This document shows, piece by piece, positions 23,584 to 61,435 of a stretch of DNA of 64,000 bases (position 1 is its first letter; each line of letters opens with the position of its first letter). This DNA comes from Candidatus Daviesbacteria bacterium (GTDB lineage Bacteria > Patescibacteriota > Microgenomatia > Daviesbacterales > UBA10151). The position numbers and the translations under genes are program-made. The notes beneath the pieces were generated by a model. That model had not been told where the DNA came from, searched no databases, and worked only from the letters and a program-made list of their open reading frames with translations. The stretch spans positions 7,680 to 71,679 of the forward strand of contig JACOXD010000008.1 in the NCBI GenBank assembly GCA_016176465.1, written 5' to 3'.

Positions 23584-23650
23584 ATGCCTGCGATAACTAC
23601 AGAAGGACTTATTTTAAAAAGATCTAATTTTGGGGAAGCGGATAGGGAAA
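23584..23650 (+). pseudogene. Duplicated 5' fragment of recO (first ~21 codons plus ~12 nt upstream)
   Basis: MPAITTEGLILKRSNFGEADR matches MPAVTTEGLILKRSNFGEADR of the full recO at 24757 (20/21 aa). Nucleotide identity is ~83%, with the mismatches mostly at synonymous positions. After codon 21 the reading frame runs into repeat elements. Confidence 0.6.
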
Positions 23651-23654
23651 ACTT

Positions 23655-23685
23655 TAGCTTTCCAATCCGGGATTATAGGTTCATA
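23655..23685 (+). repeat. Family C palindromic repeat, partial copy (tagctttccaatccgggattataggttcata)
   Basis: It matches 35119-35180 (tagctttcca...ttccaatccgggattgtaggttcata). Confidence 0.6.
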
Positions 23686-23742: not shown

Positions 23743-23776
23743 ATCCGCAGGTTACCGCTCAATCAACCCCGGGGGT
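23743..23776 (+). repeat. Family A 34-nt repeat ATCCGCAGGTTACCGCTCAATCAACCCCGGGGGT
   Basis: It is identical over 34 nt to 40514-40547, and a degenerate copy lies at 46223-46244. It is GC-rich with a CCCCGGGGG palindromic core. Confidence 0.8.
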
Positions 23777-23849: not shown

Positions 23850-24605
23850 ATGTTTGATAGAGAGATGGCTAGAAGTATTATGCAAGAACTTAAAAAGGCC
23901 TCTATAGCAACTCGTAGAATTGTTGAGGATGGATTTGCAGGAGAAGGCGGGTACTGGGGAGCACGGAGGAGTAGCTTAATTAGCATTCAAGTTTTTTTTA
24001 TGGGTGTATTATCTTTACCCATAAAAACTCATTTAGAAATGTTTAAAGCCCCCGGTGAACAAATATATGGTTTGGATTTAATGGGTGAAGCGGAACATTT
24101 GAGAGATTTAAATGTTAGAGGTTTGGGAGTAACTGTGATTGATGATAGAAGTAGGGCAACAAAACTGGAGGACAATGAAAGAGGTATTACAATAATAGGA
24201 ACAAAATTTGATCCAGAAGCTAAGAAAATTATTGAGCTTTCCGATATTTTCTCCGGAAGAACAAGAAGGAGGATTCGAAGGTATATCAAGGATAATGAGA
24301 TTCCTGGTTTTGATTTAATTACTTGTCGTCCTCTTGGAGCTATAAGTTTGGTTCCAAAAGATGTGAATACAGCTTTTTACTTAGTGCAATTTATGTGGGG
24401 TTTACTAAATCCAGAGTATGGATTACTGTTAACTGAGGTGCCCAAAATTGATCCTGGCTTGGTTAATTCTTGGTCTGAGAGGTTAAATACTGATAGAATT
24501 TGTGCAAAATACAAAGAATTTCAGTTATTGAATCCAGGCATATTACAATTGGTAAAAACTCCATCTTCACCCAAGCATTTATCCTCTATTGAAGTTACTA
24601 GTTAA
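23850..24605 (+). CDS. Hypothetical protein (orphan)
   Basis: The 251-aa ORF lies between the recO fragment and intact recO. It has no recognisable motif. Confidence 0.35.
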   Translation: MFDREMARSIMQELKKASIATRRIVEDGFAGEGGYWGARRSSLISIQVFFMGVLSLPIKTHLEMFKAPGEQIYGLDLMGEAEHLRDLNVRGLGVTVIDDRSRATKLEDNERGITIIGTKFDPEAKKIIELSDIFSGRTRRRIRRYIKDNEIPGFDLITCRPLGAISLVPKDVNTAFYLVQFMWGLLNPEYGLLLTEVPKIDPGLVNSWSERLNTDRICAKYKEFQLLNPGILQLVKTPSSPKHLSSIEVTS

Positions 24606-24675
24606 TCTTGTTCACTTCAGTTAGGCAAATTGGTAAAATTTATCCTGACACCTTAAAAGTGTCATCTTAGACTTT

Positions 24676-24756: not shown

Positions 24757-25395
24757 ATGCCGGCGGTTACCACAGAGGGGTTAATTTTAAAAAGGTCTAA
24801 TTTTGGAGAGGCGGATAGGGTTTTAACTGTACTTACAGATAGGTATGGCAAAATTTCTGTTATTGCTAAGGGAGTTAGAAGGATTACCTCCCGAAGAGCT
24901 GGGAATGTGGAGTTACTAAATAGAGTTAAGCTACATTTATTTAAAGCTAAAAATTATAACCTAACTGAGGCAGAATCTATAGAAACTTTTCCTAAATTAA
25001 AAGAGAACTTAACTCTATCTACAACAGCTTTCCATATTTTAGAGTTAATAGATAGATTAACAGCAGAAGAGCAAAAAAGTCCAAAGTTATATGAACTTAG
25101 TATCTCAATTTTTAGAATTTTAGAACAAAACCCCAGGCAAATTTTTATTAGAGGTTTTGAGGTTAAAATTTTATCTTTACTTGGGTTTTGGTCTATTAAT
25201 GCTATTAAAGAATTAAATGAGGAGCAGAAAAATATTTTGGAAAAGTTAGAATATCAGAGTTGGGAAAAAATAGGGGAGATAGATATTGGCCCCGAGCAAA
25301 GTGATAATTTAGAAAAAATATTAAGGTTTTACCTAGAAAAAATCCTAGAAAGTTCTCTTAAAAGTGTAAAGGTTTTAAAGGATTTAAAGAAGTAA
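24757..25395 (+). CDS. recO: DNA repair protein RecO (short form, no Zn finger)
   Basis: The N-terminal OB-fold segment TEGLILKRSNFGEADRVLTVLTDRYGKISVIAKG is typical of RecO. Confidence 0.65.
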   Translation: MPAVTTEGLILKRSNFGEADRVLTVLTDRYGKISVIAKGVRRITSRRAGNVELLNRVKLHLFKAKNYNLTEAESIETFPKLKENLTLSTTAFHILELIDRLTAEEQKSPKLYELSISIFRILEQNPRQIFIRGFEVKILSLLGFWSINAIKELNEEQKNILEKLEYQSWEKIGEIDIGPEQSDNLEKILRFYLEKILESSLKSVKVLKDLKK

Positions 25396-29793: not shown

Positions 29794-29832
29794 TTTTCCA
29801 ATATTTTTGATTCTATTTTTAAATAATTTTAT

Positions 29833-29901
29833 GTAACCCCAAATTCCACCTGTGTAACCCCAAATTCCACCTGGGAGGTGGATTAGCTTGACACCTAGGG
29901 A
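29833..29901 (+). repeat. Family B 69-nt composite repeat: tandem 21-mer x2 (GTAACCCCAAATTCCACCTGT), hairpin CCACCTGGGAGGTGG, then TTGACACCTAGGGA
   Basis: It is ~87% identical to 61273-61341. It contains an internal direct repeat plus a perfect 6-bp-stem GC hairpin. Confidence 0.8.
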
Positions 29902-29950
29902 TTTAAGAATTTTTTGAGGCTGTTTTGGATGAGTACATATTATAATACTT

Positions 29951-30150
29951 TTATGGCAATTGATTGGACAAACATTTATAAAAAATATAAGGGCCTTTGG
30001 GTGGCATTAAGAGAAGATGAGATAACTGTAGTTTCCTCTGGGAAAAATGCAAAAGAAGCTTGGGAAAAAGCACAAAAAATGGGCTTTAAAAAACCAATAT
30101 TAATGAATGTGCCTAAAAATTTAACTTATTTTGTCACTGGAACTTATTAA
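29951..30150 (+). CDS. Small DUF5678-like protein
   Basis: MAIDWTNIYKKYKGLWVALREDEITVVSSGKNAKEAWEKAQKMGFKKPILMNVP fits the pattern of small K-G-x-WVAL...VV..G...E...A...G...P proteins. The track ORF starts at a TTG at 29914; the ATG at 29951 is more likely. Confidence 0.4.
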
Positions 30151-35121: not shown

Positions 35122-35180
35122 CTTTCCAGCCTTCCAATCCCGGTTTGTAAACCTACTTCCAATCCGGGATTGTAGGTTCA
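35119..35180. repeat. Family C palindromic repeat, full copy (tagctttccagccttccaatcccggtttgtaaacctacttccaatccgggattgtaggttcat)
   Basis: It has nested inverted repeats (CCAATCCGGGATTG; GTAAACCTAC/GTAGGTT). An inverted copy lies at 45982-46030 and a partial copy at 23655-23685. It is followed at ~35204-35238 by CCTTAGGTGTC and the hairpin CCCACACCGGGTGTGGG. Confidence 0.7.
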
Positions 35181-35328
35181 TATCCCTTGAAATTAAAATA
35201 ATTCCTTAGGTGTCTAGCTAACCCACACCGGGTGTGGGAGGGGGTTAAACCTACCCTATAGTCAAAGGTCTGAAAATTAAATAAGCTTACTTTAGTTTAG
35301 AGCTTCTACAAGCTATAATAAGCTCAAA

Positions 35329-40513: not shown

Positions 40514-40547
40514 ATCCGCAGGTTACCGCTCAATCAACCCCGGGGGT
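40514..40547 (+). repeat. Family A 34-nt repeat (second exact copy)
   Basis: It is identical to 23743-23776. It lies 13 nt after the ftsW stop and is followed by TTTCCGTATTTCC, which is roughly the inverse of GGAAACCTGGAAAT that follows copy 1. Confidence 0.8.
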
Positions 40548-45981: not shown

Positions 45982-46030
45982 TGAACCTACAATCCCGGAT
46001 TGTAAATTCATTTCCAAACCCGGATTGGAA
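45982..46030. repeat. Family C palindromic repeat, inverted copy (tgaacctacaatcccggattgtaaattcatttccaaacccggattggaa)
   Basis: It is the reverse-complement orientation of 35119-35180. It lies in the 565-bp ileS upstream region. Confidence 0.65.
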
Positions 46031-46222: not shown

Positions 46223-46244
46223 ATCCACAGGTTAACCCTGAATC
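46223..46244 (+). repeat. Family A repeat, degenerate copy (ATCCACAGGTTAACCCTGAATC)
   Basis: It matches the 5' 22 nt of the 34-mer with ~4 mismatches. It lies ~190 nt after a family C copy, the same C-then-A order as at 23655/23743. Confidence 0.45.
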
Positions 46245-60373: not shown

Positions 60374-61192
60374 CTACTCGTTTAGTCTCACTAGATCTTT
60401 TCCCATATACCCTCTATATAGAACTAGATTATGTCTTTCTGCAATTCCCATTTGGACCCTTCTACTATCTGCGGTTGATGTAATAGGAATGGCTCTAAAT
60501 CCACCGAGTGCTTCAATCTTTCCTAGATACAAAAACCCATGCTGTTCGTACCAGTATTTTTCAAAAGCGTCCTGGGTTAAATATGCTGAAATACCTTCCA
60601 AAACTGAAGTCTCTCTTGTTCTAAAGGCGAAAACATTTTCTTCACCCTCAACTACACCCATAACAGGCATATAACTTTCCTTGCGTAACATACAATATAA
60701 ATCTCCAGCAGAGAGACCGGCCTTAAATAATCTAAATAATCGATGAAGCTCACCGAACCTTCTTTTATTCAATACTTTAGGGTGTGAGTGAAGATCACCT
60801 AAAGCGTTAATGCCAGCATCTCTTGCTCTTTCTATAGAGTTAATAATTACCTCTGCGGGAACATAACCAACTCTACCCCTGGAAGAAATAGCCGATAAAT
60901 AGAGCCCTCTTTGTGAACCATTGGCTCCAATAATCCGGTGTCTTTCTATACCATCTTGAGACTCTGTTCTCATTTTATCGAGTACCTCATGCCATTCCTG
61001 ACTGAGTCTAATTCGTAATGGGTAATCAGTTTTGGGAGGTAAAAATAGTTTACCTCTTCCAATCGCTGCCAAATATTCTTTAAAAGTTTCATACCCCCAG
61101 ATTTTGTCTGGACCGCAATGAATTGCTCGTAAGGGAACTCTAACCTGCATTCCGAAAAAAGCGTTAGTGATAGCCTCAATAGCTTCAAGCAT
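60374..61192 (-). CDS. Hypothetical protein, visibly higher GC; weak JAB/RadC-like H-S-H-P ... S-x-x-D motif
   Basis: The track ORF extends to 61303, into repeat B. The ATG at 61192 is preceded by TTGCAA-17-TAAAAT. GDLHSHPKV...LSAGD loosely resembles a JAMM/RadC metal site, but the spacing is atypical. Confidence 0.35.
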   Translation of the reverse strand: MLEAIEAITNAFFGMQVRVPLRAIHCGPDKIWGYETFKEYLAAIGRGKLFLPPKTDYPLRIRLSQEWHEVLDKMRTESQDGIERHRIIGANGSQRGLYLSAISSRGRVGYVPAEVIINSIERARDAGINALGDLHSHPKVLNKRRFGELHRLFRLFKAGLSAGDLYCMLRKESYMPVMGVVEGEENVFAFRTRETSVLEGISAYLTQDAFEKYWYEQHGFLYLGKIEALGGFRAIPITSTADSRRVQMGIAERHNLVLYRGYMGKDLVRLNE

Positions 61193-61272
61193 AGAGCTAA
61201 TTTTAACAGTTTGGGGACCTTTTTGCAAACTATAGGTTGGAAGAATATTTATAATTCTGCGAAAAAACAGAC

Positions 61273-61341
61273 GTAATCCCAAATCCCACCTGCGTAATCC
61301 CAAATCCCACCTGGGAGGTGGATTCCTATTGACACCTAGGG
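61273..61341 (+). repeat. Family B 69-nt composite repeat (second copy), located between tRNA-Asp and the orphan ORF
   Basis: GTAATCCCAAATCCCACCTGCGTAATCCCAAATCCCACCTGGGAGGTGGATTCCTATTGACACCTAGGGA is ~60/69 identical to 29833-29901. Confidence 0.8.
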
Positions 61342-61359
61342 AGTTGGTTTACATGAATG

Positions 61360-61435
61360 TGGCGGGCCCGACCGGATTCGAACCGGCGATCTCCTCCGTG
61401 ACAGGGAGGCGTGATAACCGCTACACTACGAGCCC
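61360..61435 (-). tRNA. tRNA-Asp (anticodon GTC), CCA encoded
   Basis: The reverse complement is GGGCTCGTAGTGTAGCGGTTATCACGCCTCCCTGTCACGGAGGAGATCGCCGGTTCGAATCCGGTCGGGCCCGCCA. The anticodon loop is CTGTCAC. Confidence 0.8.

Follow-up and report, generated by a model that had tools for sequence, protein, structure and literature searches.

A GC-rich intergenic repeat from a Candidatus Daviesbacteria genome probably belongs to a Y1 transposase lineage related to REP-associated enzymes

The stretch of DNA analysed here, 64,000 nt from contig JACOXD010000008.1 of a Candidatus Daviesbacteria bacterium (hereafter, the window), contains a short GC-rich repeat. Two copies are in direct orientation on the plus strand, at positions 29832–29908 (copy 1) and 61272–61355 (copy 2), and a third one, divergent, is inverted and occupies positions 35196–35246 of the minus strand (copy 3). 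All three are intergenic, copy 3 lying within the dcw cluster. From their structure, and from the genes that the same repeat accompanies in other genomes, we consider it probable that these copies are orphan, non-autonomous repeats, of the repetitive extragenic palindrome (REP) or terminal inverted repeat (TIR) type. They would belong to a lineage of Y1 HUH enzymes from Microgenomates (Patescibacteria) resembling the REP-associated tyrosine transposases (RAYTs) and the TIR-associated ones (TIRYTs).

The two direct copies, of ca. 77 nt, have a GC content of 47–50%, compared with 32.9% for the window, and have in common a stretch of 52 nt with 90% identity. They also account for the four exact occurrences in the window of the 20-mer GTAAYCCCAAATYCCACCTG, two in each copy, when 0.02 were expected from shuffled sequences. 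Both show the same build: a perfect tandem duplication of 21 nt is followed by GGAGGTGG, closing the hairpin CCACCT-GGG-AGGTGG, and then by a linker of 6–7 nt (ca. 10 nt in the family) and the box TTGACACCTAGGGA. In copy 1, the first tandem unit (TGTAACCCCAAATTCCACCTG, 29832–29852) is identical in its 21 positions to the second (29853–29873), which holds the 5′ strand of an outer stem (AAATTCC, 29862–29868) and the left arm of the hairpin (29867–29881; 6 bp and a 3-nt loop). The linker ATTAGC and the box extend over 29882–29908, with TTGACA at 29888–29893 and the 3′ strand of the outer stem, GGGATTT, at 29898–29904. Likewise, copy 2 comprises two units of CGTAATCCCAAATCCCACCTG identical in 21 of 21 positions (61272–61292 and 61293–61313), the hairpin (61307–61321), and the linker ATTCCTA plus the box (61322–61355, with TTGACA at 61329–61334), ending 4–8 nt short of the 3′ end of a tRNA-Asp gene. 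An initial annotation of the window had described both copies as direct, GC-rich repeats with a hairpin and a TTGACA motif, and our re-reading agrees with it in all these respects and in their coordinates, and places both on the plus strand. The tandem 21-nt units that it reported do exist, their register having been off by one base; the duplication becomes perfect once shifted. Copy 2 contains the core then delimited and runs slightly further, with GGGAGTTGGTTTAC (61339–61352) forming an imperfect inverted repeat of the tandem unit (GTAATCCCAAATCCC).

A covariance model (R1), built from 16 copies and used to scan the window, produced exactly three matches, corresponding to copy 1 (29858–29908, 69.9 bits), copy 2 (61298–61349, 66.9 bits) and copy 3 (52.2 bits), with the next best match at 12.6 bits. 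Copy 3 is devoid of the tandem duplication, and contains the hairpin CCCACAC-CCG-GTGTGGG (35222–35238) and the box GACACCTAAGGA. The core GACACCTARGG had previously been said to recur at three other places: the one at ~35204 is this genuine inverted copy, with its compensatory hairpin CCCACAC/GTGTGGG, but those at ~24646 and ~30211 differ from the core by more than one mismatch and coincide with no match of the model.

An exact-pattern scan of one genome per species retrieved the core from nine low-GC contigs of Daviesbacteria, Levybacteria, Blackburnbacteria and other Patescibacteria, some of them labelled only as uncultured Gammaproteobacteria, with unrelated flanks; the core was also found in a contig from Roizmanbacteria (locus L065). 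Two other matches from the genome scan (L008 and L009) were discarded as high-GC chance matches. With a degenerate pattern, a scan of metagenomes yielded 49 loci, ca. 39 of which were also high-GC chance matches, and the few true ones mostly repeated the loci from the genome scan. Two scans of viral contigs gave zero matches, indicating that there is no link to phages. Together with copy 3, these results show that the repeat is neither limited to the two copies first noticed nor unconserved.

The conserved unit, of ca. 45 nt, is AAATCCC-ACCT-GGG-AGGTGG-ATTAGCTTGA-CACCTAGGGATTT. Across 16 aligned copies, 99% of the cells of the 6–7 bp hairpin stem are paired, with compensatory variants, and 76% of those of the short outer stem AAATCC/GGATTT. 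In most copies the hairpin foot is preceded by AAAT(C/T); beside Y1 genes these bases vary. An alternative nested structure, with a 7-bp outer stem and an inner AGGTG/CACCT stem, was rejected because it had less covariation support than the simple hairpin.

The main clue to the nature of the repeat is the gene that it accompanies. In L007/L039, L032/L040, L033 and L054, the element is located 14–21 nt upstream of an open reading frame (ORF) whose product begins with MPGR..YHVFNRG, a Y1 protein of 222 amino acids with a C-terminal helical extension. This product matches the Pfam family Y1_Tnp (IS200-like transposase) with 35.4 bits, for a gathering score of 23, and its best NCBIfam match is REP_Tyr_transpos (REP-associated tyrosine transposase; E 4.8e-14, 52.5 bits), under the equivalog cut-off of 80. 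We retrieved 7,126 homologs at E ≤1e-5, the top matches all being metagenome-assembled genomes of the Microgenomates type, and both the HUH motif (PNHFHF) and the tyrosine motif RYIHLNP were invariant across 16–20 homologs. A sequence-only search of PDB with the protein or its profile gave nothing significant. With an AlphaFold model (pLDDT 85, pTM 0.85), the top PDB match in Foldseek was E. coli TnpA_REP bound to a REP hairpin (4er8_A; E 9.6e-8, TM 0.72), and the TnpA proteins of IS608 and ISDra2 matched at ca. 2e-4.

We examined eight complete Y1 loci (L007 and L032, plus L061, L063, L065, L073, L074 and L075); loci L061–L065 and L073–L075 were reached through the protein and not through the repeat. 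All eight contain a copy of the repeat just upstream of the gene and another one just after the stop codon, the latter being inverted in six of them (L061, L063, L065, L073, L074 and L075), where the inverted hairpin-linker-box units at the gene ends span ca. 36–50 nt. REPtrons and TIRtrons are defined by this arrangement, a repeat on both sides of a Y1 gene (PMC3333891, PMC3733652, PMC3337134). Of the three options contemplated in the initial annotation, this bracketing supports the first one, a dispersed element similar to REPs or to miniature inverted-repeat transposable elements (MITEs).

The gene itself occupies conserved chromosomal positions in genomes whose Y1 proteins are 79–83% identical. 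Three loci of the Daviesbacteria type (L061, L063 and L073) have it beside uvrB, with 79% identity between two of their proteins (P0067 and P0095), and the Levybacteria loci L007 and L032 have it beside ppa/gyrA. Such conserved neighbours would be expected of a vertically inherited RAYT, presumably in single copy, and not of an active insertion sequence (IS). In L033 (1288–2043), the Y1 ORF is cut short after the HUH region and continues in frame into a PGA_cap domain, of capsule synthesis (E 5e-35). The element is still present upstream of this gene, which is either decayed or chimeric.

The hairpins also vary along with the gene. Loci L061 and L063, from Daviesbacteria, contain the variant GGGGGGTGG in both flanking and solitary copies; the Roizmanbacteria locus L065 shows TCACCT/AGGTGA, and L075 shows CCAACCT/AGGTTGG, with one extra bp. 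The change to CACCC/GGGTG in L010 (L010:4767) is compensatory, as it is in copy 3 of the window. Loop and stem variants are common to the gene-flanking and solitary copies of one locus, and different between Y1 clades; hairpin variants thus track the Y1 lineage via compensatory changes.

The involvement of a Y1 transposase, and of subterminal hairpins in single-stranded DNA with no target duplication expected, is also what characterizes the ends of IS200/IS605 elements and their non-autonomous relatives, the palindrome-associated transposable elements (PATEs). The repeats might then be the ends of an autonomous IS of this type, and the window copies solo left ends remaining from decayed or excised elements. 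The protein does belong to the Y1_Tnp family, the flanking hairpins are direct in L032 and partly in L007, like the left and right ends of IS200/IS605, and the window copies resemble the promoter-bearing upstream end, with its TTGACA. Nevertheless, the flanks are inverted in most loci, the gene is apparently fixed at its chromosomal position and not multi-copy, there is no tnpB at the Y1 loci, both the fold and the profile are nearer to TnpA_REP than to the IS608 or ISDra2 enzymes, and no gene remnant exists beside any window copy. We therefore consider an IS origin very unlikely.

The TTGACA motif raises a different possibility, that the element is a regulatory DNA site of the host, either a promoter with operator repeats or a cassette for a transcription factor, acting on DUF5678/glyS at copy 1 and on PolX at copy 2. 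All the gene-proximal copies have a -10-like hexamer 16–18 nt after TTGACA, and an ATG 6–9 nt further (L061 and L065 were read by eye); at the Y1 genes these hexamers are TAAAAT, AAGAAT, TAATAT, TATTCT, TATGTT and AATAAT. Judging from this spacing, the Y1 gene has a leaderless promoter, with the TTGACA of the upstream copy as its putative -35 box. This places the hairpin upstream of the start of Y1 transcription, and favours a role as DNA. This consensus TTGACA, correctly spaced from a -10 and a leaderless ATG, favours a regulatory site, as do the tandem 21-mers and palindromes, which are typical of operators. However, the window copies, like most other solitary ones, contain no -10-like hexamer at 16–18 nt from TTGACA, and we accordingly rejected this motif as a working promoter in the window copies. 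A promoter scan predicted the DUF5678 promoter at 29914–29943, outside and downstream of copy 1, and none starting in copy 2. Moreover, copy 2 points into tRNA-Asp in antisense, and copy 3 has the inverse orientation within the dcw cluster. Most copies have no tandem unit, its length ranging between 10 and 21 nt in the others, and the neighbouring genes are unrelated across at least 16 contexts. A transcription factor cassette with three CACCTRGG half-sites, as contemplated in the initial annotation, is not supported either, because the first half-site is a product of the secondary tandem duplication and is missing from most copies. In all, we find it very unlikely that the element is a regulatory site of the host.

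An orphan ORF in the vicinity of copy 2 has a promoter-like site, TTGCAA-17-TAAAAT, on the minus strand and outside the element (61228–61200). In this ORF, as well as in DUF5678 and in all the Y1 genes, the -10-like hexamer is only 6–9 nt before the ATG (positions 29914–29955 and 61228–61190 of the window, and the Y1 loci), suggesting that leaderless mRNAs are common in these organisms.

It is highly improbable that the element functions as RNA, whether as a structured small RNA or as a cis-acting one, such as a terminator, a stabiliser or a riboswitch-like switch with alternative CCACCT/AGGTGG pairings. The hairpin is certainly maintained through compensatory changes and variants compatible with G·U pairs, copy 2 scores as a weak terminator-like site, the linker of L011 has received a self-complementary insertion of ca. 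40 nt, and classical REPs act as RNA hairpins when they are co-transcribed (PMC3733652). Yet Rfam at gathering thresholds detected only tRNAs in the window and five loci, and a search around copy 1 at E up to 10 returned noise, so that no Rfam match covers the element. Single-sequence folding of both strands of both direct copies was no better than that of shuffled sequences (z from -0.45 to -1.0). At the Y1 genes, the hairpin is upstream of the -35 and is thus not in the Y1 transcript. The orientation of the element to its flanking genes is also inconsistent, there is no U-tract, and covariation is confined to the 6-bp hairpin, where it would be equally explained by a DNA hairpin. These results likewise lend no support to the small RNA that had been put forward as the second option. 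The insertion mentioned above, in the Blackburnbacteria copy (L011:5060–5153), splits the linker between hairpin and box.

The reading of the direct copies as att-type borders, or integration scars, of a genomic island targeting tRNA-Asp is essentially refuted. In its favour, they are direct repeats separated by 31 kb, one of which abuts the 3′ end of a tRNA and an orphan ORF missing in relatives. The interval between them, though, holds the dcw cluster, on account of which the initial annotation had already rejected this reading, together with glyS and the inverted third copy; the repeat contains no tRNA-derived sequence, no integrase occurs among the ORFs flanking either copy, and the core is found at many unrelated sites and elsewhere brackets a Y1 gene of 0.7 kb.

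The surroundings of copy 2 differ from the equivalent regions of two relatives. The tRNA-Asp(GTC) gene, outside the element, is on the minus strand (61360–61435); the gap of 18 nt reported between its 3′ end and the core is real, but the element is convergent with the tRNA and not downstream on the same strand. Also outside the element, the orphan ORF (60374–61192, minus strand) has no Pfam match and carries an HSHP...SAGD motif; its first ATG is at 61192, so that the overlap of copy 2 with its 5′ extension was an artefact of ORF calling from a TTG start at 61303. These two, more distant relatives (L071 and L072) maintain the order LysM - tRNA-Asp - PolX - LemA, and in their syntenic regions there is no element (best model match of 13 bits in 56 kb) and no orphan ORF, and the tRNA-Asp runs the other way. 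The vicinity of the element to tRNA-Asp is thus not conserved, and copy 2 appears to be in a lineage-specific insertion or inversion. Contigs assembled from short reads of the same organism in Logan end inside the tRNA-Asp, beside copy 2. Considering all the copies, enrichment beside tRNAs was not significant, with only three cases, because two of them (L003 and L006) are orthologous.

Elsewhere, too, breaks in synteny fall at the repeats. The related contigs of each pair, L001/L010 and L003/L006, are homologous from the very 5′ edge of the element onwards, on its 3′ side only. Additionally, two flanks separated by 1.3 kb in L001 have 4.3 kb between them in L010, and weak copies of the element are found near the other junction.

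According to the reading that we favour, orphan repeats of a RAYT- or TIRYT-like lineage, the functional unit would be DNA, consisting of the GC-rich hairpin CCACCT-GGG-AGGTGG, a linker of ca. 10 nt and the box (TT)GACACCTAGGGA. In related genomes one such unit directly precedes the Y1 gene, its TTGACA being the putative -35 of this gene, and another, usually inverted, follows the stop codon. If it behaves like E. coli TnpA_REP and the TnpA of IS200/IS605, the Y1 enzyme would bind the hairpin in single-stranded DNA, nick nearby and rejoin strands. This activity would have seeded solitary copies into intergenic, and occasionally intragenic, sites, and would cause local rearrangements next to them. 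The 21-nt tandem duplication would be a secondary event, occurring in situ at the hairpin. The window copies, which keep the hairpin and the box and have no -10, are most likely passive relics or substrates and not promoters or RNAs. One intragenic copy, in L063 (5766–5813, equivalent to L064:3748–3795), is located in frame inside uvrB, where it encodes ca. 15–25 extra residues within ...LANSSHLGGGLDRTPRGTDGLYSHDG..., echoing published intragenic REPs in repair genes (PMC3733652).

Several observations weigh against this reading. The GTAG/GTGG tag of classical REPs is absent at the foot of the hairpin, and the window hairpins are perfect, as are the stems of many other copies, when E. coli TnpA_REP needs a stem mismatch (PMC3333891). 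The downstream repeat is direct in L032, as in IS200/IS605, and forms a palindromic doublet in L007, both from Levybacteria. There is no Y1 gene in the 64-kb window, as judged from a profile search of its six-frame translation (best E 0.6), and the existence of a cognate enzyme in the source genome is assumed. Copy number is low: there are three copies in the window, up to 3–4 per locus of 4–13 kb near Y1 genes, and two contigs, of 512 and 686 kb, have only one exact match of the core each. The core of L007 and that of L063 are identical in ca. 33 of 36 nt (ca. 92%), their Y1 proteins being 62% identical; this is far more conservation than in classical REPs and, the core being so much more conserved than the enzyme, hints at an additional constraint. 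Lastly, the nearest PolX is only 67% identical, which leaves us with no close relative for an empty-site comparison and means that we infer mobility.

The closest known systems are the REPtrons formed by REPs and RAYTs (TnpA_REP), such as those of E. coli (yafM) and Pseudomonas (PMC3333891, PMC3337134, PMC3479197). As in these, we found short GC-rich extragenic hairpins, the same repeat bracketing a Y1 HUH gene, mostly in inverted orientation, a conserved position of this gene, repeat variants that are specific to the enzyme lineage, and a predicted fold closest to TnpA_REP with its REP hairpin. Besides the missing tag, the perfect stems and the low copy number, the elements described here differ in having a bipartite conserved unit of ca. 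45 nt, composed of hairpin, linker and a 12-nt box, and in a core that hardly changes between lineages of order rank, classical REPs being specific to a species; the protein differs in its length of 222 residues with the C-terminal extension, and in its score below the NCBIfam equivalog cut-off. Classical REPs reach tens to hundreds of copies per genome.

Similarities also exist with TIRtrons, whose TIRYT genes correspond to subclass 2.1 of Quentin et al. 2018 (PMC6006769) and were described by Di Nocera et al. 2013 (PMC3733652). In both cases a RAYT-like Y1 gene is located between terminal inverted repeats that are longer than GTAG REPs and distinct from them, and the proteins are longer than classical RAYTs; some TIR repeats are partly self-complementary, and form moderately abundant families of solitary, dimeric or clustered copies. 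However, the published TIR motif GGGGWSAS, present in many TIRYTs although not in all, is clear only in L065 (GGGGACAG), and most copies contain GGGATTT or GGGAGTT; likewise, Patescibacteria are not among the published examples that we found. The repeats also recall MITEs and the REP doublets known as REPINs, because they are small non-autonomous units with terminal complementarity (AAATCCC...GGGATTT, reaching ca. 14 nt in copy 2 and L001), and because of the doublet after the L007 gene. Unlike these, solitary copies are here mostly single units and not REP doublets, and no target-site duplications are visible. We found no published description of a RAYT/REP system for Patescibacteria, where it is apparently undescribed.

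The tandem duplications are not exclusive to the window, and were present in seven of 34 copies surveyed, with a period of 10–21 nt: 21 nt in each of the two direct window copies, 16 in L003, 15 in L010, 16 and 17 in the downstream copies of L074 and L073, and 10 in that of L061 (read by eye). The duplications always have one boundary within the hairpin loop or adjacent to it (CCACCTG^G), with a variable position for the other one. Only one contig of each orthologous pair (L001/L010 and L003/L006) shows the duplication, indicating that it originates at the site itself and does not belong to the unit that is transposed. Duplication in situ, or homogenisation by slippage, after the divergence of the copies accounts for the concerted differences between copies 1 and 2.

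More speculatively, the duplications might be in vivo footprints of the Y1 enzyme, an idea to which we give rather little credence. The enzyme would nick the bottom strand within the hairpin loop (CC^CAGGTGG), a polymerase would extend the free 3′-OH by 10–21 nt, in a short strand-displacement synthesis, and the HUH enzyme, still linked to the 5′ end, would reseal the strand, generating a duplication with one fixed and one variable end. Rep proteins and relaxases cut inside the hairpin loop, and IS608 TnpA and E. coli TnpA_REP beside the hairpin.

The window contains other short repeats. Family A is a second family of GC-rich intergenic repeats (35132–35182, 23660–23685 and 45982–46030), composed of tandem units of ca. 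25 nt, each with the palindrome CAATCC-N-GGATTG, and one of its arrays abuts copy 3. Its palindrome, CAATCCNGGATTG, was absent from all 69 loci retrieved by then; Family A is thus not part of the hairpin-box family and looks lineage-specific. An identical 34-mer, ATCCGCAGGTTACCGCTCAATCAACCCCGGGGGT, ending in the palindrome ACCCC-G-GGGGT, is found in two intergenic regions (23743–23776 and 40514–40547), with a weak third copy at 46223, and may represent a third REP-like family. Also, the first 64 nt of an ORF starting at 24757 (24757–24820) are duplicated 1.17 kb upstream with 83% identity (23584–23647); the duplicates bracket an insert containing Family A and 34-mer repeats plus an ORF (ca. 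23852–24606), as if the 5′ end of the gene had been interrupted long ago by an insertion.

Our reading explains a conspicuous GC-rich repeat in the AT-rich, streamlined genome of a member of the candidate phyla radiation (CPR) without invoking a new RNA or regulator, and removes a false island border from around the essential dcw region. It also documents in Microgenomates a system of REP/TIR repeats and Y1 transposases, with more than 7,000 homologs in public databases annotated only as transposase. In practical terms, the repeats interrupt short-read assemblies, as seen beside copy 2, and mark points of rearrangement. For the study of RAYTs and HUH nucleases, the system is of interest because the repeat carries the putative -35 box of its own enzyme, because its sequence is much more conserved than that of the enzyme, and because the loop-anchored duplications suggest a candidate cleavage site. 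If these were indeed footprints of the enzyme, this RAYT-like clade would cut within the hairpin loop, like Rep proteins and relaxases, and the repeats would mark ongoing enzyme activity and rearrangement in CPR genomes, such as the inverted tRNA-Asp and the synteny breaks. In that case, the near-invariance of the 45-nt core between orders would speak for a function domesticated by the host, and not for a purely selfish repeat.

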